11,595 nucleotides of DNA from a virus. Its lineage: Duplodnaviria > Heunggongvirae > Uroviricota > Caudoviricetes. Positions within the stretch are counted from its first letter, which is position 1. Every line of letters begins with the position of its first letter. The DNA is taken from positions 1-11,595 of the IMG/VR virus record IMGVR_UViG_2698536392_000001; one strand, 5' to 3'. Both the position numbers and the translations under genes were made by a program. Shown here one piece after another: positions 1 through 11,595 of this stretch. Under the pieces are notes generated by a model. That model did not search any database. It was not told the origin of the DNA and saw nothing but the letters and a program-made list of their open reading frames with translations.

Positions 1-1822
1 CACTGCAATCGCGATGCGGATCGCTGCCATCGTTCTCCTTGTGCGGATGTTCAGCACCTTCCATTTCCTCCAGACCTTTTTCCTGATATTCATTCTGATT
101 TTCTTCATTAAAGGTTTTCTGATACGTTGCGTCGCCCATCACCGCGCCGCAGTCAGGACAGTTGCCGCCGCCAGCCTGACCGCAGGCGATGCAAACTTTC
201 TCCGTTTCCTGTTGTTGCACTACTGGCTCAGGCTGTTCCGTTTCTGGCTCGTTTTGTTGCGTATTTGGGTCGTTCTGTTCCGCTTTCTGGTCGTTATGTT
301 CCGTTTCTGGCTGATTCTGGTACACAGAGTCGCGGGTCTGGATCCCCTTAACCCATTTCGGATCATTCGGGTCGCTAATCCCTTCAACAAATTCTCCGCG
401 AGAGGCAGCCAGTAATTTGTCTGCATCGACAGGATTTTTGGGCGGAATGTTTTTCCGGGCTTCATGGAGTTCTGCCCGCAGTTTCTGATATTTCGCATCA
501 ACAGAATTTACCTGTGACTGAGCATCCAGCGACTGCGTGTCCTGATGATGTTCAGTTGCATCCGGTTCCACTGTTTCAGCCGTTGCCTGTTCATCTGCCA
601 TTGCGCAAGATGGTTGCAGTTTTTCTTCATCATCCTGTTTTTCTTCTTCTTCTGTTACACGCTGCGGCATCGGGGCAGAGGAACGACCGCAGGCAATATC
701 CACGATTTCCGGATCAGGGTTGGCATGATCAGTTTCAGTCAGTACTTTGTTCAGATATTCAGTGACGTGTGCGGGGGTAACCTCGATCCCAATTGGTGCT
801 TCTTTTACGGACGCAACCACGATGGCGCGGGAATAATCCAGCCCGCCAGGCATGGTGATGAATTTGTCGCGGAAAACAGAAAAGGGCGGTTTATTTTCAG
901 CGATAATTTCCTCGACACGTTTAGCGTGTGCCGGATGAAGGTTATAAATGTCCACGTCCATTGAACGAGCCAGTACGCCAGTGGCTACGTCGCGCGCCAG
1001 TGACGTCAGATCGTGAACGAAACCTTCGCCGCGATCGGTGAGGTTCCCGCCGCCAGCATTAGCGCCGGAAGCCGTGCGCGTGATGCGTGAAACACGATTT
1101 CCTTTCATCCACTCTTTTGTCAGCAGACCACGATCGGTGTAGTCTGCGTCCAGGTATGCTTCGAAAAAAGCAGTCATCAGCCCCAGGCTTGAATTGCCTG
1201 GATTAGGGAAAACTCTGTCAGTATCACGCACCAGTTTGTGGAGATCGCGAATTTCCAGCGGGTCGAGCAGGCTGGTTTTGTGGGAAACAGCCAGGGCAGT
1301 AACAGCTGGTAGTTCTTCAGCTCGTGCAATGTGTAATGCCTGGAGTTCGTCGCGTGAAACGTGCGTCACCGGTTTTTCGCTGCCGTGTTGAGCAAGCCAG
1401 CGAATGGGCAGCTCCTGACCGGAAATCGGGAGTAGCATATTCTCCTCAATCTCCGTCATGTCTTCGCCATTAACATTGGTATTGTCAGTGCTGGCTGGTT
1501 TGTCCTGCGCAGAGGATGAGGGCGCGATAAATACCATTGTGATGCCATCTTCCCCGCCTTTTTCGTAACGGTTGCAGAATTCCGTATCAAATACGCCTTC
1601 TGGCGGGAGGTCATCAACAACGGGCAAATTGACGCGAACAGGTTTTTTGAAGTCATCTTCATCGTAGCCAGCATCATCAATCGCAACAGCACCACGGGAG
1701 ATGGCAATGGATAATTTTTTCGCTTCAGCCCAGTAAAAACCGCCTTTAATACCGAGACGTTTTCTGACTTTGTCATTTTTTGCTTCGTAATACAGTGGGT
1801 AAACTTGTTTATCGGTGCTCAT
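1..1822 (-). CDS. recE: Exodeoxyribonuclease VIII (RecE), N-terminal ~607 codons; gene continues beyond the window start
   Basis: Uninterrupted minus-strand frame from ATG at 1822-1820 to the window edge; absent from the ORF track only because it has no stop inside the window. Translation starts [15 protein letters not shown] and includes [45 protein letters not shown], an acidic Q/E/P-rich repeat linker and a CxxC-x7-CxxC motif. This matches my recollection of the non-catalytic N-terminal part of Rac RecE; the nuclease domain would lie outside the window. Confidence 0.8.
233..316. repeat. Four tandem ~21-bp degenerate repeats inside recE (encode heptad-like acidic Q/E/P-rich linker)
   Basis: Plus strand reads ctgttccgtttctggctcgtt / ttgttgcgtatttgggtcgtt / ctgttccgctttctggtcgtt / atgttccgtttctggctgatt at 233-253, 254-274, 275-295 and 296-316. 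Confidence 0.75.
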
Positions 1823-1929
1823 TGTTTTTTAACCTCAACTCAGATTAAAATTCGTTTGTTCAGTGAATAATCTTGCCGGATACACACTGTTCATAGCCTG
1901 TGCCATACGCAGGCTATTTCTTTCAGATT

Positions 1930-2199
1930 TCACCTTTTAATTTCATTGCAATAAGAGTTGCCAGAAATTCGGCTTTTTTTTCTGCGGGCAGATTCTTTCC
2001 GATATGCACCAGGCACATTTTTTTTGACGCCTTCGTTAAGTGTTTTAACGTTGCCTGATGGACCGTCGATATCAACCACAGTGAAAGGGGTTTCTTTATT
2101 TTCTGTTTTAATCACGTAGCCAATACGCTTTCCTTCCAGGCTGACTTCGTGAACAATGTCATCAGTAGTAACAACAGTGGCTTCATAACTGGTAATCAT
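1930..2199 (-). CDS. racC: RacC-like protein; C-terminal 31 codons apparently out of frame after an A8 homopolymer (possible pseudogene or sequencing error)
   Basis: Likely start is ATG at 2199 (MITSYEATVVTTDDIVHEV...) with AGGAG 6 nt upstream; the 105-aa track ORF starting at 2247 is probably an N-terminal over-extension. After the A8 run (plus-strand T8 at 2028-2035) the current frame gives a basic low-complexity tail NVPGAYRKESARRKKSRISGNSYCNEIKR, while the -1 frame gives MCLVHIGKNLPAEKKAEFLATLIAMKLKGEI ending at a stop at 1923-1925. Confidence 0.65.
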   Translation of the reverse strand: MITSYEATVVTTDDIVHEVSLEGKRIGYVIKTENKETPFTVVDIDGPSGNVKTLNEGVKKNVPGAYRKESARRKKSRISGNSYCNEIKR

Positions 2200-2273
2200 G
2201 TTTTTCTCCTTAATTAAGGTTGAGCGAATCCCTGCCATTGCTGGCATAAATTCAGTTTCGGATAGTCAGTTAA

Positions 2274-2444
2274 TTAAAGTTCGTGTGCCATCTGGTCTTT
2301 TTCGGCACAGATTTCACTACAATATTTTTTCATTTCCGTCGTTGGTATAACTCCACGCATGAAATGAAGTGGTCTTGTAATGATTTTGCTTTCTTCAATT
2401 TCTTTATTGCAAAGGTGATAAGCACATTTTATTTTCTTAGTCAT
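2274..2444 (-). CDS. ydaE: YdaE-like small zinc-binding protein (56 aa)
   Basis: Minus-strand ORF below the 60-aa track cut-off: [56 protein letters not shown]. It has C-x4-C ... C-x3-C cysteines, its start overlaps the kilR-like stop (TAATG), and its size and position match Rac ydaE. Confidence 0.65.
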   Translation of the reverse strand: MTKKIKCAYHLCNKEIEESKIITRPLHFMRGVIPTTEMKKYCSEICAEKDQMAHEL

Positions 2445-2665
2445 TACCATGACTCCGCCTTTACAGGTAAACCATCACGACCGAGGAAGACTCTAATCAT
2501 GCAGTCAGAAATGCATGTTTTTGTAGTCAGGCTACGAATATAAAGTTTTCGCTTTTTAATATTGTTTGCCGAGGCGATATATGTCCGACCTTCATGAAGA
2601 ACATAATCGCCAGGGGTCACACACTGACGTGGTATTTCATCAGTTCCGAAGTGATGAGCAATCAT
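2444..2665 (-). CDS. kilR: KilR-like cell-division inhibitor (73 aa)
   Basis: Track ORF 2444..2677 begins MEIIMIAHH; the internal ATG at 2665 has GGAG 6 nt upstream and gives a 73-aa product [73 protein letters not shown]. Position between ydaE and the immunity region matches Rac kilR. Confidence 0.7.
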
Positions 2666-3073
2666 AATTATCTCCATTTTTACAAATGAATTTTGTCGAT
2701 GCGGTGCCTGGTGCCTCCAGGTGACGTTAACCAGTTAACAATTAACGCCGGATAATCCACCCATAACACTGATGCTTTTAACTGTGCCGCGTGCGCTTAG
2801 CCGCATTCACCGCATCACAAAATTCACTTTAAAAAGGGGCGGCAGGGCAGCTACGGAGTAGAACTGATGCCGCCAAAGACTAGACACAGCAATGTCGTTA
2901 TTTACAACCGGAGGCGCACTCCCACCATTTAAATTTAACAGACAAGACCGACTCTTTATGGATACCGGAAATGCGCCTTCGTGTTGTGCCCGGTTTTATT
3001 TCACCACCTCCGGGCTTTGGTGGCCTCGGCTATACCCCTACAGCAAGAATATTGAATTAATCCAATAAATGGT

Positions 3074-3226
3074 TTAGCTGGTATTTTTGGCAAGCCAGCG
3101 ACGTGCGCCAGCTTCGGTTTTAAACGATTTGCTTTTGGTATACGTCATGGCGGTGAATGTGCCGTCCTGATTGGGAAACACGCCACATACCAGAGATTCG
3201 TTGTTGCCAAGATCGATAGTATCCAT
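3074..3226 (-). CDS. Small Rac-type early protein (50 aa; YdaF/YdaG-like position)
   Basis: Internal ATG at 3226 with GAGG 5 nt upstream gives MDTIDLGNNESLVCGVFPNQDGTFTAMTYTKSKSFKTEAGARRWLAKNTS; the longer 71-aa track ORF lacks a good ribosome-binding site. It lies just downstream of a strong leftward promoter. Confidence 0.5.
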   Translation of the reverse strand: MDTIDLGNNESLVCGVFPNQDGTFTAMTYTKSKSFKTEAGARRWLAKNTS

Positions 3227-3406
3227 GTTGACCTCATTTCCCCTTAACGCCGGGTGGCGGAACGTTTTATCTACTGCGCTTTGTATCAATCAACAACTGC
3301 CGTCATGTTCGTATGCCTCAGGCTGGCTACTTAGCCCTGTTCAGTGGCTGGATAACTCGAGGTATTGTCCTGCCGTTCTCTGGTGGGGCGTTGTTTGGAT
3401 ATGCTT

Positions 3407-3448
3407 ATTAAACACAATACGTTTTCTTATGTCAACACGAAATGTGTT
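3407..3448 (-). promoter_or_regulatory. Leftward early promoter (PL-like) with overlapping operator-like inverted repeat AACAC-N5-GTGTT
   Basis: On the minus strand: TTGACA (plus 3435-3430), a 17-bp spacer, then TTTAAT (plus 3412-3407). The inverted repeat AACACgaaatGTGTT at 3434-3448 overlaps the -35 and has the same architecture as the site at 4009-4023. Confidence 0.55.
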
Positions 3449-3477
3449 TTGTGGTGGATGTCATATGATGATGGTAC

Positions 3478-3501
3478 AAAAAAGCCCGCTGATAGCGGGC
3501 T
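3478..3501 (-). terminator. Rho-independent terminator downstream of the repressor gene
   Basis: Minus strand reads AGCCCGC-uauca-GCGGGCU followed by UUUUUU (plus-strand A run 3478-3483); it sits 30 bp past the repressor stop. Confidence 0.7.
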
Positions 3502-3531
3502 GATTGGCATATTACTGTGATAGCAAGATCA

Positions 3532-3951
3532 TTACTCCGGTGGGGGATTATCTTTAAGCCTGCCTCTCAAATATTTTTCTACATACTCATCGATTTCTTT
3601 TAGCCGGACTTCAAATAGCTCAATCATTCGTTGTTGTTCTGAGCCCGGTAGCTGGTTAAACAACTCAAGAAGTTTTCGTTGGGATTCATTTAACCACAAT
3701 TCAGAAGATTCCTGTTCTCCAAATAGGAGCTCAGGAGGAGATATGCCAAGTGCCTTTCCCAATACGACAGCGTCATGCACTCCAACATTTCTGCTGCCCG
3801 CCTCATAGTTACCTATACGCGATTGCGTCCATCCGCAGATTTCAGCAAGTTTTCCTTGAGATAAACCAAGCTTCTGCCTGCGCTCTTTAAGACGCATTGC
3901 AATTTTGTCATTGAGCCTACTAGCGGCAATTTTTTCGTTTTCTTTTTCCAT
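3532..3951 (-). CDS. Prophage immunity repressor, XRE-family HTH, no S24 peptidase domain (RacR-like position)
   Basis: 139 aa; HTH segment LGLSQGKLAEICGWTQSRIGNYEAG; divergently oriented to the Cro-like gene; AAGGA ribosome-binding site. Short length and absence of an Ala-Gly/Ser-Lys autocleavage module suggest a non-LexA-like repressor. Confidence 0.75.
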   Translation of the reverse strand: MEKENEKIAASRLNDKIAMRLKERRQKLGLSQGKLAEICGWTQSRIGNYEAGSRNVGVHDAVVLGKALGISPPELLFGEQESSELWLNESQRKLLELFNQLPGSEQQRMIELFEVRLKEIDEYVEKYLRGRLKDNPPPE

Positions 3952-4047
3952 TGCATCCTTGTATCACGAATCGTGATTTACATAAAACACAAAACAGCTT
4001 GACCATATAACACAAGGTGTGTTTAAAATTGTCATCGGAGGTTTTCA
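3952..4047. promoter_or_regulatory. Divergent promoter/operator region of the immunity switch
   Basis: Perfect 15-bp palindrome ATCACGAaTCGTGAT at 3963-3977, 12 bp from the repressor start codon. Inverted repeat AACACaaggtGTGTT at 4009-4023 lies between a rightward -35 TTGACC (3999-4004) and -10-like TTTAAA/TAAAAT (4022-4029). GGAGG precedes the Cro-like ATG by 7 nt. Confidence 0.6.
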
Positions 4048-4290
4048 ATGAACAAAATTTCAACATATCGAAAACAGCTTGGGCTGTCTCAAAGACAACT
4101 TGCTGTTCAGTTAGGGTGGATACAAAGCCGACTGGCAAATTACGAAGCAAATTTTCGTACCCCTGGACTAGAGGAGTGCAGAAAAATTGTTTCTACCCTT
4201 AATCGGCTTGGCGCTCGTTGTGGACTTGACGATGTATTCCCCCCAGACGGTAAGCATAGCGAAAACAGCATAGGAGCGGTTGATTCATGA
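4048..4290 (+). CDS. Cro-like XRE-family HTH protein (YdaS-like position, 80 aa)
   Basis: HTH segment LGLSQRQLAVQLGWIQSRLANYEA; first gene of the rightward operon; its stop overlaps the next start (ATGA). Confidence 0.75.
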   Translation: MNKISTYRKQLGLSQRQLAVQLGWIQSRLANYEANFRTPGLEECRKIVSTLNRLGARCGLDDVFPPDGKHSENSIGAVDS

Positions 4291-4709
4291 AAATCAGGCA
4301 TGAGCATATCGAATCAGTGTTGTTAGCCCTGGCTGTTGAAAAAGGGCAGGCATGGGTAGCCAATGCCATTACTGAAGAATATCTGCGCCAGGGGGGCGGC
4401 GAATTGCCCCTTGTACCAGGCAAGGACTGGAACAATCAGCAGAATATCTATCACCGTTGGTTGAAAGGTGAAACGAAAGCGCAAAGGGAAAAAATTCAGA
4501 AACTGATCCCTGCGGTTCTGGCAATTCTTCCGCGCGAGCTGCGTCACCGACTCTGCATCTTCGATACCCTGGAACGCCGTGCATTACTGGCGGCGCAGGA
4601 AGCGTTGAGTACGGCAATTGATGCGCATGATGAGGCAGTCCAGGCCGTTTACCGGAAAGCACATTTCAGCGGTGGTGGGTCGCCCGGCGATTCTGTCGTA
4701 GTGCATTGA
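4287..4709 (+). CDS. ydaT: YdaT-like protein (140 aa; CII-position regulator reported toxic when derepressed in Rac)
   Basis: 140 aa, the same length as Rac YdaT as I recall it; translationally coupled to the Cro-like gene; position between cro-like and the replication genes. Confidence 0.6.
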   Translation: MKIRHEHIESVLLALAVEKGQAWVANAITEEYLRQGGGELPLVPGKDWNNQQNIYHRWLKGETKAQREKIQKLIPAVLAILPRELRHRLCIFDTLERRALLAAQEALSTAIDAHDEAVQAVYRKAHFSGGGSPGDSVVVH

Positions 4710-4754
4710 TTGAAATTAATCGTGCCGGATTGTTTTGTTCGGTATCAGTTAAAT

Positions 4755-4773
4755 GTAACGCTGCGAGCGTTAC
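4755..4773. repeat. Perfect inverted repeat GTAACGC-N5-GCGTTAC upstream of the replication initiator gene (iteron/operator-like)
   Basis: gtaacgc-tgcga-gcgttac at 4755-4773, 14 bp upstream of the O-like start; the same motif recurs inside the gene. Confidence 0.7.
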
Positions 4774-4786
4774 AAGGTGAAAACAA

Positions 4787-5575
4787 ATGGCTTCAAACTG
4801 GATAAAGCTCGAGGTTATTACGCCGGATAAGCCGGAAATATTCAGGCTTGCTGAGATTCTGAATATTGATCCAGATGCCGCATTAGGGAAGGTTATTCGC
4901 TTCTGGGCATGGGCGGATCAACAAATGATAGACGGTAATGCAAATTGTAACGCTCGCGGCGTTACAAAAAGTGCAATAGATCGCATCACTTTTATGGCTG
5001 GTTTTGCTGATGCGTTAATTCAGGTTGGATGGCTGGTCGAAAATGACGTTGGGCTTTCTCTACCTAACTTTGAACGTCATAACGGAAAAAGCTCTAAAAA
5101 ACGGGCGGTTACAAACGAGCGAGTTACAAAAATACGCGAACTGAAACGAAAAGGTAACGCTGCCATCGTTACACAAACGGATCAAAAAGCGTTACCAGAG
5201 GAAGAGGAAGAGGAAGATATAAATACTGATCTCCCCCTAAATCCCCCTCGCCAAAAACGAGCGTCTAAAAAATTCGAGCCGGAGGCTATTGAGCTGCCCG
5301 ATTGGTTGCCGGAAACACTCTGGCATGAGTGGGTCCGGTTCAGACAGGCATTGCGAAAACCGATTCGAACGGAGCAGGGCGCTAACGGGGCGATACGGGA
5401 ACTGGAAAAATTCCGCCAGCAGGGTTTTACACCTGAGCAGGTGATTCGACACAGCATCGCCAATGAATACCAGGGCCTGTTCGCGCCGAAAGGTGTTCGG
5501 CCTGAGACGTTGCTCCGACAGGTTAACACCGTCTCGTTGCCGGACAGTGCGATCCCGCCAGGCTTCAGGGGGTAA
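4787..5575 (+). CDS. Phage replication initiator / replisome organiser (O-like; YdaU-like position)
   Basis: 262 aa; immediately upstream of the DnaC-like gene; contains the iteron cluster in the region encoding a basic then poly-Glu linker (KRAVTNERVTKIRELKRKGN ... EEEEEED); AAGGTGA ribosome-binding site. Confidence 0.6.
   Translation: MASNWIKLEVITPDKPEIFRLAEILNIDPDAALGKVIRFWAWADQQMIDGNANCNARGVTKSAIDRITFMAGFADALIQVGWLVENDVGLSLPNFERHNGKSSKKRAVTNERVTKIRELKRKGNAAIVTQTDQKALPEEEEEEDINTDLPLNPPRQKRASKKFEPEAIELPDWLPETLWHEWVRFRQALRKPIRTEQGANGAIRELEKFRQQGFTPEQVIRHSIANEYQGLFAPKGVRPETLLRQVNTVSLPDSAIPPGFRG
4947..5195. repeat. Intragenic iteron cluster (putative replication origin) within the O-like gene
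   Basis: GTAACGC-tcgcg-GCGTTAC at 4947-4965; direct GTTACAAA half-sites at 5108-5115 and 5123-5130; GTAACGC-tgcca-tCGTTAC at 5154-5172; GCGTTAC at 5189-5195. These are followed by a (GAG GAA)n purine tract at 5198-5218 and an A/T-rich patch, resembling the iterons plus AT-rich region of lambda ori inside gene O. Confidence 0.6.
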
Positions 5576-5581
5576 CGGACC

Positions 5582-6328
5582 ATGAAAAATATTGCGACAG
5601 GCGGCGTTCTGGAACGCATCCGCCGACTGACCCCGCCACATGTAACCGCCCCATTCAGAACGGTAGCGGAGTGGCGCGAGTGGCAACTTGCTGAAGGCCA
5701 GAAACGTAGCGAGGAGATTAACCGCCTGAATCGCCAGTTGCGGGTGGAAAAAATTCTGAATCGTTCAGGCATCCAGCCGTTGCACCGTAAATGCTCGTTT
5801 GCGAATTACCAGGTGCAGAACGACGGCCAGCGATACGCGTTAAGCCAGGCGAAATCCATCGCCGATGAACTGATGACCGGGTGTACAAATTTTGCGTTCA
5901 GCGGAAAACCTGGTACCGGGAAGAATCACTTAGCGGCATCTATCGGGAATCGCCTGCTGAAAGACGGTCAGACAGTGATTGTGGTTACCGTGGCTGATGT
6001 TATGAGCGCCCTGCACGCCAGCTATGACGACGGGCAGTCAGGCGAAAAATTTTTGCGGGAGCTGTGCGAAGTGGATCTGCTGGTTCTTGATGAAATTGGC
6101 ATTCAGCGCGAGACGAAAAACGAGCAGGTGGTGCTGCATCAGATTGTTGATCGCCGGACAGCGTCGATGCGCAGCGTGGGGATGCTGACAAACCTGAACT
6201 ATGAGGCCATGAAAACATTGCTCGGCGAGCGGATTATGGATCGCATGACCATGAACGGCGGGCGATGGGTGAATTTTAACTGGGAGAGCTGGCGTCCGAA
6301 TGTTGGTCAGCCAGGAATTGCGAAGTAA
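5582..6328 (+). CDS. ydaV: DnaC/IstB-like AAA+ helicase loader (YdaV-like)
   Basis: 248 aa; Walker [19 protein letters not shown] and Walker [10 protein letters not shown]; follows the initiator gene with a 6-bp gap. Confidence 0.85.
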
Positions 6329-6350
6329 TTTTTACCGGGAGGAAATTTTA

Positions 6351-7094
6351 ATGGAGACTGTTTTTGACGCACTGAAAGCAATGGGAAAAGCCACATCCAT
6401 AGAACTTGCTGCGCGACTTGATATCAGTCGTGAAGAAGTGCTGAACGAACTATGGGAACTGAAAAAGGCTGGTTTTGTTGATAAAAGCGCGTACACCTGG
6501 CGTGTGGCTGATAACAACGTTCAGCAGGAACAGCCAGCGCAGGCAGAACTGCCGGAAGAAACCACCACAGCAACAGTAGCGAAAATCTCAGAGTGCGATT
6601 TAACCGCAACGATTGAACAACGCGGACCACAAACGGCTGATGAGCTGGCTACATTGTTTGGTACCACATCACGCAAAGTGGCTTCAACGCTGGCAATGGC
6701 AATCAGCAAAGGTCGTCTGATTCGCGTAAATCAGGGCGGTAAATTTCGTTACTGCATACCGGGCGATAATTTACCAGCAGAGCCGAAAGCAGCATCGGTA
6801 GCGGAAACTGATGGTAAGGCCTTTCCTCATCCCGCAGGTGTTGCATTACCAGTACAGGAGGCTGCAACACAGGAAGATATTAAAACAGAAACGGTGGCGG
6901 ACATTGTGCAGTCGCTTGAGAAGCGAGTGGATAATCTGGTTCTGCCATCGCTGCGACAGGCAAACCGCGAACTGCGTCGGGCGAAAAGTGATATCCGGAA
7001 ATGGGAGCGAGTCTGTGCCGCGCTGCGGGAGCTGAATAAATATCGCGATATTGTCGCCCAGCTTTGCCGGGAGGAAACCAGTGAGCAACATTAA
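6351..7094 (+). CDS. Hypothetical protein with two winged-helix-like segments and a C-terminal coiled coil
   Basis: Start taken at ATG 6351 (GGGAGG 8 nt upstream) rather than the track start at 6300, which overlaps the ydaV-like gene. Segments [30 protein letters not shown] and [34 protein letters not shown] look like HTH/wHTH motifs; the C-terminus is heptad-rich. Possibly the DUF1627 family (recollection only). Confidence 0.55.
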
Positions 7095-7635
7095 TTACCA
7101 GGCACTGCGAATGGCGGCAGAAAATGCAACCCCTGGCGAATGGTGTTCTGATGATTATGGGTTAATTGCTGATGCCGGACTGAACGCAAATTACTACATA
7201 GCATCATGCTCAGGACCAGATAATCGCGCCAATAAGCGATTCATAGCAGCAGCCAATCCGGCTACCGTGCTGGCACTGTTGGATGAACGGGAAGCCCAAA
7301 GCAAACGCATTGCAGAGCTGGAGACTAATCTTGCTGCGCTTGCGGCGGAGAATGCGGGGCTGAATAAATTTATCGTACAGAGTTGCTACGTGTTTGATGG
7401 CGAGCAGGATGAACTATCTGATGCGTATATCTGCGCAATAGACGGAAGGATGCCGCAAACCCCAGCCACCGACGCTTTCTTGTCGGATGTGCGGGCTGGG
7501 GCGTTTAACGACCTTTGCGCGGCGTTTGTCAGGCACGCAAAAGTTGCAGGACTGGATGATGCCGATACCGTAACGCTTAAGGAAGTGACAGAAGCATTGT
7601 TGCATTGTGCGGAACAGATTCGCGCGCCTGAATAA
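7081..7635 (+). CDS. Ead/Ea22-like family protein, paralog 1
   Basis: Start probably GTG 7081 (GGGAGG 6 nt upstream), giving [21 protein letters not shown]. Shares the N-terminal INYQALR motif and the central [18 protein letters not shown] core with the ORF at 8079, including an identical 17-nt stretch gccaatccggctaccgt. Confidence 0.6.
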
Positions 7636-7707
7636 TTAAATTTAGTGTTGTAAATAAAATTTAATCCTTAACCGGAAGGATTTCTGCACCCTCAGAACAG
7701 CAGGAGG

Positions 7708-7723
7708 CCACCCGAAAGGGTGG
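7708..7723 (+). promoter_or_regulatory. GC-rich hairpin with GNRA tetraloop (CCACCC-GAAA-GGGTGG) between a Shine-Dalgarno-like AGGAGG and the start codon of the acidic ORF
   Basis: Perfect 6-bp stem with GAAA loop, seen directly. AGGAGG at 7702-7707 is 23 nt from ATG 7731 unless the hairpin shortens the effective spacing; alternatively GGTGG in the 3' arm serves as the ribosome-binding site. Confidence 0.45.
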
Positions 7724-7730
7724 TAGTGAA

Positions 7731-7913
7731 ATGCGAAAGTTCAAAATAATTATTGAAACGGGAATAGCTGGTGGAGATTTTGAGGATGTATTCGAAGTGG
7801 ACGATGACGCAACACCTGATGAAATTCATGACGAAGCAAAAGAAATTTTCTTTAACTACTGCAATTACTCATATCACGAAATAAAAGACGAAGAGGAAGA
7901 ACAAAATGGCTGA
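7731..7913 (+). CDS. Small highly acidic protein (60 aa), function unknown
   Basis: MRKFKIIIETGIAGGDFEDVFEVDDDATPDEIHDEAKEIFFNYCNYSYHEIKDEEEEQNG has about 20 of 60 residues D/E. Preceded by an AT-rich leader and hairpins; its 3' end overlaps the next ORF. Confidence 0.5.
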   Translation: MRKFKIIIETGIAGGDFEDVFEVDDDATPDEIHDEAKEIFFNYCNYSYHEIKDEEEEQNG

Positions 7914-8082
7914 TTTTGGTTCAACTAAATATAACGTCAGTTATGAAGAATGGCATGAATTGTTAATGGACTATGCAGAGTTACGCGGTGGAAGTGCTGC
8001 TGATGCTGAAGCCTGGCGTGATGACTATGAAGCAGGAAAAACTCCGGTCGAAGCATATTGTGATGAGTGGGGCGATGAATGA
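7906..8082 (+). CDS. Small acidic protein (58 aa), function unknown; not in the ORF track (below 60 aa)
   Basis: ATG 7906 with AGGAAG about 8 nt upstream, overlapping the previous stop: MADFGSTKYNVSYEEWHELLMDYAELRGGSAADAEAWRDDYEAGKTPVEAYCDEWGDE. Its stop overlaps the start of the next gene (ATGA-type coupling). Confidence 0.5.
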   Translation: MADFGSTKYNVSYEEWHELLMDYAELRGGSAADAEAWRDDYEAGKTPVEAYCDEWGDE

Positions 8083-8669
8083 GCGAAATTAATTATCAGG
8101 CGCTACGTGAAAAGGCAGAGAAAGCAACTAAAGGAAGCTACATCGTAGGGCATACATCTGTTAACCAGCACGGCAATTTAACAGGAGTTTTTGTTTGTCA
8201 AAAATGGAAAGGAGAACCCGGTGGCGTGATTGCCGAATGTCACGTTAACTGCCTGGTTGAAACAGATGCTCAGGCTTATGCAAACGCAGAATTCATCGCC
8301 GCAGCCAATCCGGCTACCGTCTTGGCGCTGCTGGATGAACGGGAAAGAAACCAGCAATACATCAAAAGCCGTGATCAGGAGAACGAGGATATTGCGCTAA
8401 CGGTAGGGAAACTGCGTGTTGAGCTTGAGGAAGCAAAATCAAAACTCAACGAGCAACGCGAGTATTACGAGGGAGTAATCGCGGATGGAAGTAAGCGCAT
8501 AGCAGAACTGTCTGCTAGCCACAGCAAATTGCGCGACACAATGGCTGGCATCCACAACACAATCCGAATGGATGGCGGCTATACGCCACTGGCAGCAATC
8601 CTTAACGCTGCTAAACGCGCATATGAAGAATCAGCAAGCGCCGCTGGCATCAAGGAGGAGTCTGAGTGA
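8079..8669 (+). CDS. Ead/Ea22-like family protein, paralog 2 (C-terminal coiled coil)
   Basis: MSEINYQALREKAEKATKGS ... [19 protein letters not shown]; C-terminal heptad-rich segment LTVGKLRVELEEAKSKLNEQREYYE. Confidence 0.6.
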   Translation: MSEINYQALREKAEKATKGSYIVGHTSVNQHGNLTGVFVCQKWKGEPGGVIAECHVNCLVETDAQAYANAEFIAAANPATVLALLDERERNQQYIKSRDQENEDIALTVGKLRVELEEAKSKLNEQREYYEGVIADGSKRIAELSASHSKLRDTMAGIHNTIRMDGGYTPLAAILNAAKRAYEESASAAGIKEESE

Positions 8670-9160
8670 TGGTCATTTCACCTATAACGCTGAAAGCGGC
8701 GCAGGAATTTATCGCACAGCACCACCGACACAATAAACCACCAGTGGGGCATAAATTCAGCATTGGTCTGAGAAATAATGCCGGAGAATTGATAGGTGTG
8801 GCGACAGCTGGTCGACCTGTTGCACGACATTTGGACGATGGATTAACGCTTGAAGTAAATCGCACATGTACCACAGGAGAACGCAACGCTAACAGCGCGC
8901 TTTATGGTGCTGTCTGGCGGGCAGCAAAAGCTATGGGTTATCAACGTTGTATTACGTACACCCAGGCAGATGAATCAGGAGCATCTCTTCGCGCAGCTGG
9001 TTTTGTTCGTGTGAAAGAGCTTCCTCCAAGAAAAAGCTGGGCGGAATCAAGCGTCGCCCTGCGGAGTAAACGCGATCCGGTCGGAAACGGTGGTATTCCT
9101 CGTGTGCTCTGGGAAATCAGGAGAATGAGTACCGCTGGCATTCGCATCAAAGGAGAGTGA
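8669..9160 (+). CDS. Hypothetical protein, possibly a minimal GNAT-like acyltransferase fold (weak)
   Basis: ATG 8669 (or GTG 8666) after AAGGAGGAG. The C-terminal half GYQRCITYTQADESGASLRAAGFVRV resembles the GNAT motif-B pattern; the N-terminus has QHHRHNKPPVGH. I could not place it in a family with confidence. Confidence 0.4.
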   Translation: MVISPITLKAAQEFIAQHHRHNKPPVGHKFSIGLRNNAGELIGVATAGRPVARHLDDGLTLEVNRTCTTGERNANSALYGAVWRAAKAMGYQRCITYTQADESGASLRAAGFVRVKELPPRKSWAESSVALRSKRDPVGNGGIPRVLWEIRRMSTAGIRIKGE

Positions 9161-9161
9161 T

Positions 9162-9806
9162 ATGAGCGCTATAACCAAAGAACGTATCAAATTATTCATT
9201 AAAAATCCGCTTGATAACGGACTTACTCGTGGCGAACAAATGGAACTGGCACGAATTGCACTGGCATCACTGGAACGCGAACAGATTCGCCACGAGCATG
9301 CCAAATGGTCTGACTCCACATTTGGCTGCGTTGGCCCCATTGGTCCGCTGAAACATCTCTCAAAAGAGGCACTGGAAGCCGCAGCCGAACCAGACGATCT
9401 TGGCGAGTGGGCTGATATGCAGTTTCTGTTGTGGGATGCACAGCGCCGTGCTGGCATCAGCGATGCTGAAATTACCGCTGCTATGGAAGATAAATTGAAG
9501 ATCAACATGAAGCGCCAGTGGCCTGAACCAAAAGATGGTGAGCCTCGCTTGCACATTAAAGAACCCGGCAACTCTCCGGTAACTCCGGATGGTTGGATAA
9601 GCTGTAGTGATCGAATGCCTGAAAAGGGCCAGAACGTGCTTATTTCGGTGAATTTCGATAGCTCTCTGGTTGAACCGCTAATATGCTCTGCACGCTATAC
9701 CGGAAGCACATTCCGGCGAGGAGATGCAACGATTAAGCCGGGTAATGGTATTGAGCAGGCAACTCACTGGATGAAATTACCGGAACCGCCGCAGGAGGTG
9801 AGCTGA
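9162..9806 (+). CDS. MazG-like all-alpha NTP pyrophosphohydrolase domain (DUF550-like) fused to a C-terminal DUF551-like domain
   Basis: N-terminal LKHLSKEALEAAAEPDDLGEWADMQFLLWDAQRRAGISDAEITAAMEDKLKINMKRQW fits the MazG/HisE-type EExxE ... ExxD ... K.x.N.xR pattern. C-terminal WISCSDRMPEKGQNVLI ... ATHWMKLPEPP resembles the DUF551 signature (recollection). AGGAGA ribosome-binding site 6 nt upstream. Confidence 0.6.
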   Translation: MSAITKERIKLFIKNPLDNGLTRGEQMELARIALASLEREQIRHEHAKWSDSTFGCVGPIGPLKHLSKEALEAAAEPDDLGEWADMQFLLWDAQRRAGISDAEITAAMEDKLKINMKRQWPEPKDGEPRLHIKEPGNSPVTPDGWISCSDRMPEKGQNVLISVNFDSSLVEPLICSARYTGSTFRRGDATIKPGNGIEQATHWMKLPEPPQEVS

Positions 9807-10201
9807 TGGAAAATGAAGGCGATAATATCATCACACTGGTGCAGCCAAAGCGCGATGAAGAGAAGCTGCTGAACATTACAGTAACTGGCAGAAAAAACTA
9901 CACACAACAGAGCTGTAAGCATCGGGCCATTGAGGTTCATGAACAGGATCGCGTTATCCTGTGCTTGCAGTGCGGATGTGTTGTGGACCCTTTTCAGTAT
10001 GTTCTGCGGTGTGCGAACGATGGTGAGGCTGTGGTGAGAGAGATTAGACAGCTTCATAACAGACGCGATCAGCTCCGCGAATCTGTTGCCAGCCTCGAGC
10101 GTGAAGAAAAGAACACCAAAGCACGGTTGCGGGCAGCAAGAACTGCAATACTGTATGCGGAAAATGACCTTAAAAATATTGAGCAGAAGGTGAATCAATG
10201 A
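9806..10201 (+). CDS. Hypothetical protein with a Cys/His zinc-ribbon-like motif and C-terminal coiled coil
   Basis: SCKHRAIEVHEQDRVILCLQCGCVVDP, then a heptad-rich helix REIRQLHNRRDQLRESVASLEREEKNTKARLRAARTAILYAENDLKNIEQK. AGGAGG 7 nt upstream; start overlaps the previous stop. Confidence 0.55.
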   Translation: MENEGDNIITLVQPKRDEEKLLNITVTGRKNYTQQSCKHRAIEVHEQDRVILCLQCGCVVDPFQYVLRCANDGEAVVREIRQLHNRRDQLRESVASLEREEKNTKARLRAARTAILYAENDLKNIEQKVNQ

Positions 10202-10275
10202 CCTGGCCTGAAGCATTCACAACGGTAGGAATCGCGGTGGCGCTGGTGGTGTATTCGATTTGCCGCTGGGGATAA
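10198..10275 (+). CDS. Putative 25-aa single-pass hydrophobic peptide, translationally coupled to the upstream ORF
   Basis: ATGA overlap with the upstream stop; MTWPEAFTTVGIAVALVVYSICRWG has an 11-residue hydrophobic core; AAGGTGA 4-5 nt upstream. Below the ORF-track size cut-off. Confidence 0.35.
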   Translation: MTWPEAFTTVGIAVALVVYSICRWG

Positions 10276-10282
10276 AAACGGT

Positions 10283-10310
10283 TTGCGGGAAAAGGAGAGT
10301 TAAGTAGAAT
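10283..10310 (+). promoter_or_regulatory. Candidate promoter of the hok mRNA
   Basis: TTGCGG (10283-10288), 16-bp spacer, TAGAAT (10305-10310). The predicted 5' end near 10318-10321 starts GCTTGAGGCTATCTGCCTCAGG, which resembles the hok mRNA 5' element of plasmid R1 as I recall it. Confidence 0.45.
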
Positions 10311-10369
10311 TGCAGCGGGTGCTTGAGGCTATCTGCCTCAGGCATGATCACCAAAAGGCAGATAGAGAA

Positions 10370-10437
10370 AAGCCCCAGTTAACATTACGCGTCCTGCAAG
10401 ACGCTTAACATTAATCTGAGGCCATATCTATGCGACA
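10370..10437 (-). ncRNA. Candidate Sok-like antisense RNA (approximate extent)
   Basis: Minus-strand promoter: -35 TTGACC (plus 10472-10467), 18-bp spacer, -10 TAATCT (plus 10448-10443). The predicted start near 10436 gives a transcript antisense to the mok-like start region. I could not define the 3' end or terminator by eye. Confidence 0.3.
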
Positions 10438-10489
10438 CATAGAGATTAGCCTCTTACGGACCGAAAGGTCAAGGAGAAGCAGGCTATGA
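10430..10489 (+). CDS. mok-like upstream ORF (19 codons) whose stop overlaps the hok start codon
   Basis: ATG 10430 with GAGG 8 nt upstream; its UGA stop overlaps the hok AUG (cuAUGAag), a geometry consistent with coupled translation as in hok/mok systems. Confidence 0.45.
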   Translation: MRHIEISLLRTERSRRSRL

Positions 10490-10641
10490 AGCAGCAAAAG
10501 GCGATGTTAATCGCCCTGATCGTCATCTGTTTAACCGTCATAGTGACGGCACTGGTAACGAGGAAAGACCTCTGCGAGGTACGAATCCGAACCGGCCAGA
10601 CGGAGGTCGCTGTCTTCACAGCTTACGAATCTGAGGAGTAA
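10486..10641 (+). CDS. hokD: Hok/Gef-family type I toxin (51 aa), closest to HokD/RelF in my recollection
   Basis: MKQQKAMLIALIVICLTVIVTALVTRKDLCEVRIRTGQTEVAVFTAYESEE: N-terminal transmembrane helix plus the conserved C-terminal Hok motif. AAGGAG ribosome-binding site 9 nt upstream. Below the ORF-track cut-off. Confidence 0.85.
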   Translation: MKQQKAMLIALIVICLTVIVTALVTRKDLCEVRIRTGQTEVAVFTAYESEE

Positions 10642-10709
10642 GAGACCAGGCGGGGGAGAAATCCCTCGCCACCTCTCATGTGTCAGGCATCCTCAACGCA
10701 CCCGCACTA

Positions 10710-10732
10710 AACCCGCTTCGGCGGGTTTTTTG
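10710..10732 (+). terminator. Rho-independent terminator of the hok transcript
   Basis: AACCCGC-ttcg-GCGGGTT followed by TTTTTT, about 70 nt after the hok stop. Gives a transcript of roughly 415 nt from the candidate promoter. Confidence 0.8.
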
Positions 10733-10877
10733 TTGCGCGCTGAATGCGCAGGGTGAAAAATAACCATATATTTGATTATATACACAACAAAAAATAAAAG
10801 TCATTGCACCTGCACATTAAACAATCAAATATACGACGTGAAATAAATATTTTTCAGATTAATATTTTTGTCTCTAT

Positions 10878-11129
10878 GTGAATATAACCGTTTGTACTTA
10901 TAAACCTGGAGGCATCGTGGAAAAAATAAAAAAACTATTTAGTAGCAAATACGCAGTCATACGTCGTGATGACCTGTCAGTTATAGTCGAAATGGATTAC
11001 TTCCCTGAAACCCCAAAATCAATGATGTATCGTAATGGTCGAAAGGCAATTTTTTTACCGATGAGGGTAAGTGACATTATGGGAAATGATAAACTGCTGG
11101 ATGAATTGCGAGTCAGAGCATCCTGTTAG
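10878..11129 (+). CDS. Rem-like small protein (83-aa ORF; in-frame GTG at 10917 after GGAGG is an alternative start)
   Basis: The 83-aa length and the position downstream of hokD and upstream of a ydfU-like gene match the hokD-rem-ydfU order of the Qin prophage as I recall it. Preceded by a roughly 170-bp AT-rich region. Confidence 0.45.
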   Translation: MNITVCTYKPGGIVEKIKKLFSSKYAVIRRDDLSVIVEMDYFPETPKSMMYRNGRKAIFLPMRVSDIMGNDKLLDELRVRASC

Positions 11130-11200
11130 TATTGGCATTAATTCTGTTATACTACATAACGGGCTGAACACCCATTCTACTGCGCCAGCGGAGAACTACG

Positions 11201-11595
11201 ATGGCGCATATACAACTGGTCAAACAAACCTCTTCCGGATTACTTCTCCCGGCGACGCCGGAGAGTTGCGATTTTTTGCATCAAATCAAAATAGGTGAGT
11301 GGATACACGCGGACTTTAAGCGAGTGCGTAACTACGCGTTCCACAAGCGTTTTTTCAAACTCCTGCAACTGGGATTCGATTACTGGACTCCGGTCGGTGG
11401 GGCGATCACGCCTCGCGAACGAAAACTGGTATCAGGCTTCGTTGATTACCTGTGCGAATCAGTAGGTCGGGAACACACTCCAGCCCTGAGTGATGCCGCA
11501 GAGCAATACCTTAATACAGTTGCGACATGCAGAACCCGGGATACGGCATTGCTAAAGTCGTTTGACGCTTTCCGCGAGTGGGTAACCATTCAGGC
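11201..11595 (+). CDS. Hypothetical phage protein (YdfU-like position), 5' part only; runs off the window end
   Basis: ATG 11201 with GGAG 8 nt upstream; open frame to the window end: MAHIQLVKQTSSGLLLPATPESCDFLHQIKIGEWIHADFKRVRNYAFHKRFFKLLQLGFDYWTPVGGAITPRERKLVSGFVDYLCESVGREHTPALSDAAEQYLNTVATCRTRDTALLKSFDAFREWVTIQ. Confidence 0.5.
   Translation, partial: MAHIQLVKQTSSGLLLPATPESCDFLHQIKIGEWIHADFKRVRNYAFHKRFFKLLQLGFDYWTPVGGAITPRERKLVSGFVDYLCESVGREHTPALSDAAEQYLNTVATCRTRDTALLKSFDAFREWVTIQ

Follow-up and report, generated by a model that had tools for sequence, protein, structure and literature searches.

In bacteriophage T4, two late genes are known in which the Shine-Dalgarno sequence lies too far from the start codon and an intervening hairpin restores the distance, with these split ribosome-binding sites reducing the spacing from 22 to 5 nucleotides (nt) in gene 38, and from 27 to 11 nt in gene 25 (PMC3014915). 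Here, we describe a comparable arrangement in a stretch of 11,595 nt (hereafter, the window) corresponding to positions 1 to 11,595 of the IMG/VR virus record IMGVR_UViG_2698536392_000001, which is an Escherichia coli lambdoid prophage of the Rac type. Region 7636-8082 of the window, on the + strand, is composed of a 95-nt intergenic leader (7636-7730) and two short open reading frames, ORF60 (7731-7913) and ORF58 (7906-8082), and represents an ordinary, very common and widespread two-gene accessory module of E. coli lambdoid prophages. The unit formed in its leader by AGGAGG, a GNRA-tetraloop hairpin, 6-9 nt and AUG is best explained, judging from the comparison of related loci, as a portable split Shine-Dalgarno site, probably a new example of a known mechanism. 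Our overall reading, to which we assign a probability of roughly 60%, is that of a mobile module transcribed by read-through, in which the leader would provide ORF60 with a split site, ORF58 would be translated by coupling, and the two proteins would work as independent small binders or inhibitors.

We first consider the leader. It starts with an AT-rich segment (7636-7662) in which only 3 of the 27 nt are G or C (11% GC), followed by hairpin 1 (7663-7682, + strand), with a 7-bp stem AAUCCUU/AAGGAUU and the loop AACCGG. The Shine-Dalgarno sequence AGGAGG (7702-7707, +) lies 23 nt upstream of the ORF60 AUG at 7731, and hairpin 2, (G)CCACCC-GAAA-GGGUGG(U), occupies 7707-7724 (core 7708-7723, +) between the two. 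These elements had been pointed out in a prediction made from the window's sequence alone (the original prediction), and all of the sequence features listed therein are indeed present where they had been placed. Folding of 7630-7745 recovered both hairpins in the minimum-energy structure (z = -2.67, with 2 of 200 shuffled sequences folding as well), and hairpin 2 alone accounts for about -14 kcal/mol in the window. Moreover, the 7-nt spacer UAGUGAA that separates hairpin 2 from the AUG holds no alternative Shine-Dalgarno sequence, while the 3' arm of the hairpin, GGGUGG, is a poor match to one and is itself paired. In the mechanism we propose, translation of ORF60 would rely on the strong AGGAGG supplied by the portable leader, with the GNRA-tetraloop hairpin looping out 16-18 nt and bringing the effective spacing to about 7 nt. 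ORF58, and then the next gene, may be read by translational coupling through the overlaps ATGGCTGA (8 nt, between ORF60 and ORF58) and ATGA (4 nt, between ORF58 and the downstream gene); a Shine-Dalgarno-like motif for ORF58, GAGGA (7893-7897, +), precedes its AUG by 9 nt and lies within the codons for the Glu-rich tail of ORF60.

For 64 of 84 loci, the predicted stability of hairpin 2 lies between -13 and -17 kcal/mol, and 94.6% of its cells are paired. CCACCC/GGGTGG alternates with CCGCCC/GGGCGG, a compensatory A-U to G-C change, G.U variants are observed too, and a G-to-A substitution at the last base of the Shine-Dalgarno sequence turns the closing G.U pair into A-U. Nucleotide diversity in hairpin 2 (0.112) reaches the level of third codon positions (0.086-0.126), with pairing mostly kept, a combination that is the signature of a structure-constrained element. 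The Shine-Dalgarno sequence itself is conserved: of 211 copies of the element, 200 have AGGAGG or AGGAGA, and the majority of the remaining ones have GGGAGG or CGGAGG. Overall, the suggestion that a hairpin in the spacer between the Shine-Dalgarno sequence and the AUG exerts translational control is in agreement with these data, as the hairpin is conserved and probably matters for translation.

The leader is also portable. A scan of IMG/VR with the hairpin 1 pattern retrieved 120 loci (L137-L256), and in approximately half of them the leader (hairpin 1, AGGAGG and hairpin 2) precedes a gene of the DUF7167 family, to which ORF60 belongs. In the remaining loci it precedes several unrelated genes, namely those for a small membrane protein (MKHYLEKNYPRKSR... 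and variants), for proteins starting with M(T/A)ELTKEQ or M(T/A)ELTKW, for a protein starting with MQDIKENI, and a Q-antiterminator-like gene; the leader was found in front of unrelated genes in two complete E. coli genomes as well. Across different genes, the distance from hairpin 2 to the AUG is 7, 9, 6, 6, 6 and 9 nt (211 copies of the element), and the spacers following the hairpin (UAGUGAA, UAAUGAAAA, UAAGAA, UAAUGA and UAAUAAAUA) are A-rich and lack a Shine-Dalgarno-like motif. Hairpin 2 acting as a bridge is the simplest model, since the distance from hairpin to AUG is constant at 6-9 nt and most of the downstream genes have no other Shine-Dalgarno sequence.

In comparison with T4 genes 38 and 25, the distance between the Shine-Dalgarno sequence and the AUG is too long in all cases, 23 nt in the window as against 22 and 27 nt, and the hairpin would restore it to about 7 nt, as opposed to 5 and 11 nt. 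In both systems only a group of close relatives has the arrangement, and homologues further away lack it. However, there is no sequence relationship between them, and the leader described here is portable, serves several unrelated genes of temperate lambdoid phages, contains an additional conserved hairpin upstream, and is proposed from sequence comparison. If our reading is correct, the split ribosome-binding-site mechanism extends from two T4 late genes to temperate phages.

We then focused on the limits of the module, whose left junction is the stop codon of the upstream gene. In loci with differing upstream genes the conserved sequence starts at CTGAATAATTAAAT, and an imperfect palindrome, CTGAAT-AATTAA-ATTTAG (7628-7645, +), spans the stop codon TAA (7633-7635) of the upstream gene in the window and forms the left-hand limit of the conserved leader. 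In several families, the upstream proteins terminate in ...E-TAA; the idea of a universal three-frame stop at the leader start was rejected, as one GAA-TAA frame is common to almost all upstream genes. The right junction (8079-8099, +), located by alignment of the downstream flank and of downstream N-termini, comprises the ATGA overlap and the first seven codons of the following gene (MSEINYQ), and is either ATGA itself or the end of these codons, which are common to Ead genes and to unrelated downstream genes. In agreement with this, homology to Shiga toxin (Stx) 2 phage 1717, which lacks the module, begins at window position 8077 (query position 1078), 2 nt before the ATG of the downstream gene; in that phage, the orf73/DksA-like gene directly abuts the Ead2-like gene. 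These junctions show that recombination at conserved sequences on gene boundaries transfers the module from phage to phage.

In the window, the module is flanked by two Ead/Ea22-like genes on the + strand: Ead1 (7081-7635; GTG start; Pfam Ead_Ea22, E 9e-20), which lies outside the mobile module, and Ead2 (8079-8669; Pfam Ead_Ea22 PF13935, E 2.4e-43). These are paralogues with 31% protein identity. The original prediction placed the insert between Ead paralogues and suggested that it had been acquired by recombination within an Ea22 core, defined by a 17-mer common to both genes (7252-7268 and 8304-8320). The 17-mer is there, but the exact run is actually 20 nt long (7249-7268 in Ead1, where it codes for the family motif AANPATV, and 8301-8320 in Ead2, both on the + strand). 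Being deep inside both Ead genes, approximately 370 nt upstream of the left and 220 nt downstream of the right boundary of the module, it was rejected as a boundary, and acquisition through the Ea22 core is not supported. Similarly, Ead genes on both flanks are a minority arrangement: among approximately 80 related loci, the upstream gene is drawn from at least six families, the commonest coding for a 118-aa (amino acid) zinc-finger/coiled-coil protein and the others including methyltransferase-like genes, genes for a 101-aa protein and a DUF1627 protein, and Ead-type genes, while the downstream gene usually codes for a 119-aa non-Ead protein. It was also observed that unrelated proteins of this region have in common the tail AGI(K/R)xxxE followed by a stop codon, e.g., Ead2 (...SAAGIKEESE, window 8640-8669), the XF1762-like protein (...STAGIRIKGE, 9130-9160) and lambda Ea22 (...DAGIRIKGE). 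The tail codons of Ead2 hold the Shine-Dalgarno sequence of the next gene, AAGGAGGAG, and these tails resemble conserved junctions at which modules could be exchanged.

A moron, as conceived for phages HK97 and HK022, is a unit of promoter, gene and terminator inserted between two genes that are adjacent in related phages. The cassette had been proposed to be moron-like, and this holds in part: it is a discrete, horizontally shuffled module, absent from Stx2 phage 1717 and inserted between genes that are adjacent there, and its GC content (0.36 in ORF60 and 0.44 in ORF58) is below the approximately 0.50 of the flanking genes. However, a consensus scan of 6900-8900, crude for promoters, detected neither promoter-like nor terminator-like sites on the + strand in or beside the cassette, so that it does not qualify as a strict moron. 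The module would instead be transcribed by read-through, with its genes translationally coupled into the surrounding operon, in contrast to lambdoid morons, with which it shares being an extra module absent from related phages and a GC content lower than that of its flanks.

ORF60 is predicted to encode a 60-aa protein with an isoelectric point (pI) of 4.06, a net charge of -14 and 32% Asp+Glu. It belongs to Pfam DUF7167 (PF23768) over the full length of the profile, scoring 53.6 bits where the cutoff is 24.4, with residues 2-53 aligned to profile positions 1-60 of 60; it shows no difference from the family and also matches phrog_1997. The ratio of nonsynonymous to synonymous polymorphism (pN/pS) is 0.083 among 85 related loci, and 26 of the 41 variable sites are at third codon positions. 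AlphaFold2, run on the family alignment, returned a beta-hairpin packed with a helix (beta-beta-alpha) at a mean predicted local distance difference test (pLDDT) score of 85.7, with a low-confidence acidic tail that is predicted to be disordered. The near-invariant columns are mainly hydrophobic or aromatic (F21, A27, I32, A36, F40 and Y46), and the median net charge of the family is -12. Homologues are present in Pseudomonas and in Firmicutes-type assemblies, where genes other than ORF58 follow them; the same applies to relatives at 64-70% identity, which are translationally coupled to genes with the Ead-type tail AAGIKVEAE. Literature searches for DUF7167, phrog_1997 and WP_001224672 turned up nothing relevant.

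With respect to annotation of the ORF60 start, the upstream frame is shut by TAA at 7662-7664 in the window, and by a UAA directly before the AUG in the commonest variant. Gene callers nevertheless yield mis-extensions of the DUF7167 gene to 87-93 aa that read through the leader. In one allele class (a cluster of 139 member sequences) the start ATG is changed to AGG and the annotation uses an ATG further upstream, giving 87 aa, and in locus L055 ATG is changed to ATA; such alleles are either decaying copies or copies with mis-called starts. The leader was rejected as coding sequence, as the 87-aa annotations arise only in rare variants.

ORF58, in turn, would encode a 58-aa protein with a pI of 4.05, a net charge of -12 and 28% Asp+Glu, modelled with AlphaFold2 as a three-helix bundle (pLDDT 86.9, family alignment). 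It matches phrog_519 (E 2.9e-22) in the C-terminal part only, at profile positions 76-137 of 143, and has no counterpart among the Pfam and NCBIfam families. In an exhaustive profile search, 74 cluster representatives matched at E<=1e-3, and an IMG/VR scan with a distant relative, P0221, gave no match. The pN/pS ratio is 0.115 over 74 related loci; W16, L20, W37, Y41, G44 and P47 are near-invariant, again mostly hydrophobic or aromatic residues, and the family has a median net charge of -10. The claim that the cassette encodes two strongly acidic small proteins is hence borne out, including confident folds for both peptides, and extends to the two families as a whole. Taking together the DUF7167 and PHROG matches, pN/pS of about 0.1, the confident folds and the family-wide acidity, both ORFs are real, folded genes under purifying selection, with acidity kept across both families.

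Of 5426 complete E. coli genomes, 2305 have a match to the 447-bp region, and for 1753 of these the match spans at least 80% of it. As the cassette is present in approximately 40% of sequenced E. coli genomes, a defined target for its products would annotate thousands of genes. Within the close E. coli clade, neither ORF occurs without the other, and the distance between the two starts (175 nt) and the 8-nt overlap are the same in 77 of 77 loci. Outside this clade the two families separate, e.g., 20 of 23 viral loci with ORF58 relatives have no DUF7167 gene, and the ORF58 family is also present in virulent Klebsiella phages of 157 kb, such as Menlow (58.9-60.7 kb of the record), amid runs of small hypothetical genes. 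An obligate ORF60-ORF58 complex is therefore unlikely, and we regard them as two independent small-protein families that travel together here. In Stx phage ArgO145, the same module is located in a leftward exo-xis-type region, adjoining ea22-like genes; its leader is only 33 nt long, with the Shine-Dalgarno sequence and the hairpin kept.

Several observations weigh against our reading, particularly that of the leader. We infer transcription, translation and hairpin formation alike from comparison. Hairpin 2 is stable, shows compensatory changes and lies 6-9 nt from the AUG, with the caveat that the leader copies, all close relatives of one another, offer thin covariation: only two of the 41 distinct leaders (9 of the 211 element copies) have the A-U form of its key pair, and nine distinct variants have an A.C mismatch at this pair. 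In about 20 of the 84 loci the hairpin is weakened to between -5 and -10 kcal/mol, and more distant DUF7167 genes display ordinary Shine-Dalgarno spacing or direct coupling (GTGATG), without the hairpin. In addition, a -10-like TAAAAT was noticed by eye at 7655-7660, lacking a -35 element, and may be a weak promoter. Lastly, the Q-like gene is preceded by a GGAGA of its own, located after the hairpin at 11 nt, which indicates that bridging by hairpin 2 is not required in every case and that the hairpin may have another role. Such a role, in which hairpin 2 or the whole leader would be a translational attenuator, an element for RNA processing or stability, or a nut-like site for a phage or host factor, seems unlikely to us. 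In its favour, GNRA hairpins often serve in protein binding and tertiary contacts; the leader is carried along as one unit behind six or more upstream gene families; and hairpin 1 is its most conserved segment (pi 0.018), below the Shine-Dalgarno sequence, hairpin 2 and synonymous sites in diversity, while having no role in the split-site model. Hairpin 1 carries a U.G wobble in place of the window's U-A pair in 36 of 41 distinct leaders, which argues for an element acting at the RNA rather than the DNA level. On the other hand, an Rfam search of the leader gave chance-level matches only, with no family, and neither hairpin is followed by a U-tract, so that hairpin 1 is not terminator-like. 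The boxB element of phage phi21 has only the heptamer UAACCGG in common with hairpin 1, in a different register, no boxA-like sequence is visible in the leader, the position is mid-operon and hairpin 2 has a 4-nt GAAA loop; a phi21-type boxB or nut site was consequently rejected for hairpin 1, the phi21 boxB loop being CUAACC (PMC12550061). These results, along with the constant distance of 6-9 nt for genes that mostly have no other Shine-Dalgarno sequence, favour the split site. In a wider proposal, which we consider doubtful, the leader of about 95 nt would be a self-contained, mobile RNA "adaptor", a universal junction by which lambdoid phages insert accessory genes into their early operons, made of an upstream stop, a hairpin 1 that binds a phage or host factor or directs RNA processing, and a split-site hairpin 2 giving a strong, structure-dependent ribosome site to whichever gene follows it at 6-9 nt. 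Independently of this, either or both of the acidic mini-proteins could be new inhibitors of a host protein of defence or DNA metabolism.

As for the proteins, their small size, conserved acidity, confident folds, purifying selection, early-operon position and spread in temperate and virulent phages lead us to favour, tentatively, a stoichiometric mode of action, in which ORF60 and ORF58, independently of each other, would be small proteins that bind or inhibit some protein of the host or the phage. DNA mimicry is one form this could take. Small acidic inhibitors that mimic DNA include T7 Ocr, T7 gp5.9, ArdA, phi29 p56 and Ugi, which the two proteins resemble in size class, in their strongly negative charge and in being encoded among early phage genes, but not in sequence or fold. 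A model of this kind, built on the original prediction, is an autonomous moron whose products mimic DNA and counteract host defences (e.g., type I restriction-modification, BREX or RecBCD), gained by recombination within the Ea22 core. The acidity kept in both families (judged from net charge and per-column acidity), the small size of the proteins, their early-operon position, the low GC content, the lack of the module in phages that are related in other respects (e.g., Stx2 phage 1717), and the ORF58 relatives in small early-gene clusters of virulent Klebsiella phages are all compatible with it. Nevertheless, we consider it the less probable of the functional alternatives: besides the missing promoter and terminator and junctions that are not at the Ea22 core, the conserved columns form mostly a hydrophobic and aromatic core, and the most acidic stretch of ORF60 is the variable, low-confidence tail. 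Moreover, sequence and fold searches linked neither protein to a known DNA mimic or anti-defence protein, PADLOC and NCBIfam gave no match for either, and a literature search on Ea22 and anti-defence found nothing relevant. Slightly better placed, but still unlikely, is a role in phage development (the lysis-lysogeny decision, induction or host transcription), either in the manner of the exo-xis proteins or together with the neighbouring Ead/Ea22 proteins. The exo-xis genes orf60a, orf61, orf63 and ea22 were reported to affect lysogenisation and induction (PMC3824215, PMC7093339), the ArgO145 module resides in such a region next to ea22-like genes, and the DUF7167 genes at 64-70% identity are coupled to genes with an Ead-type tail. 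The small proteins encoded by lambda orf60a, orf61, orf63 and ea8.5 thus resemble ours in size and in their neighbourhood by ea22-like genes in Stx phages. However, no homology was found when they were compared, the module of the window lies in the rightward operon past the replication genes, most E. coli copies are not beside an Ead gene, and virulent phages, where the ORF58 family also occurs, make no lysogeny decision. It is very improbable, finally, that the ORFs are decaying or non-functional prophage remnants. Lost start codons (the AGG alleles of the 139-member cluster and the ATA allele of L055) and internal stops in 2 of 36 ORF60 alleles and 1 of 33 ORF58 alleles would fit such decay, which is contradicted by pN/pS of about 0.1 and confident folds in both ORFs, and by family members in Pseudomonas, Firmicutes-type assemblies and virulent phages.

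Altogether, the original interpretation of the locus is partly supported, and apart from the leader the finding is ordinary prophage accessory content, with a translation signal of modest interest. This signal shows that an element for translation initiation can itself be a conserved junction for the exchange of phage modules, which helps to explain the mosaicism of lambdoid phages, and knowledge of the leader also helps start-codon annotation, considering the 87-93 aa mis-extensions mentioned above.

Regarding its genomic context, the gene order of the window places the module in the rightward early operon, in the accessory region past the replication genes. On the left are recE, kil, a repressor-like and a cro-like helix-turn-helix gene and ydaT, followed by an O-like replication gene, a gene for a DnaC-like ATPase and a DUF1627 gene; next come Ead1, ORF60, ORF58 and Ead2, all on the + strand, and on the right an XF1762 family gene, a dATP/dGTP pyrophosphohydrolase-DUF551 gene, a 131-aa ORF and hokD/sok. 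The XF1762 family protein (8666-9160), encoded in the same accessory region as the module, has a sub-threshold match to Pfam Mom (24.2 bits against a cutoff of 27.1), and may be an acyltransferase-like protein related to DNA modification. Two RNA genes were also identified with Rfam: the antisense small RNA DicF at 2837-2888 on the - strand (RF00039, 55 bits against a gathering score of 48), and the antisense RNA sok at 10317-10488 on the + strand (RF01794, 107.8 bits), which adjoins the hokD-type toxin ORF (10486-10641) and forms with it a hok/sok type I toxin-antitoxin locus. A hok gene is also present in GenBank PP818812.1 ('Actinobacillus phage vB_Apl-pPE4', labelled as from A. pleuropneumoniae), which has approximately 94% identity to E. 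coli lambdoid prophages across Ead1 and the cassette, and whose host label appears doubtful.

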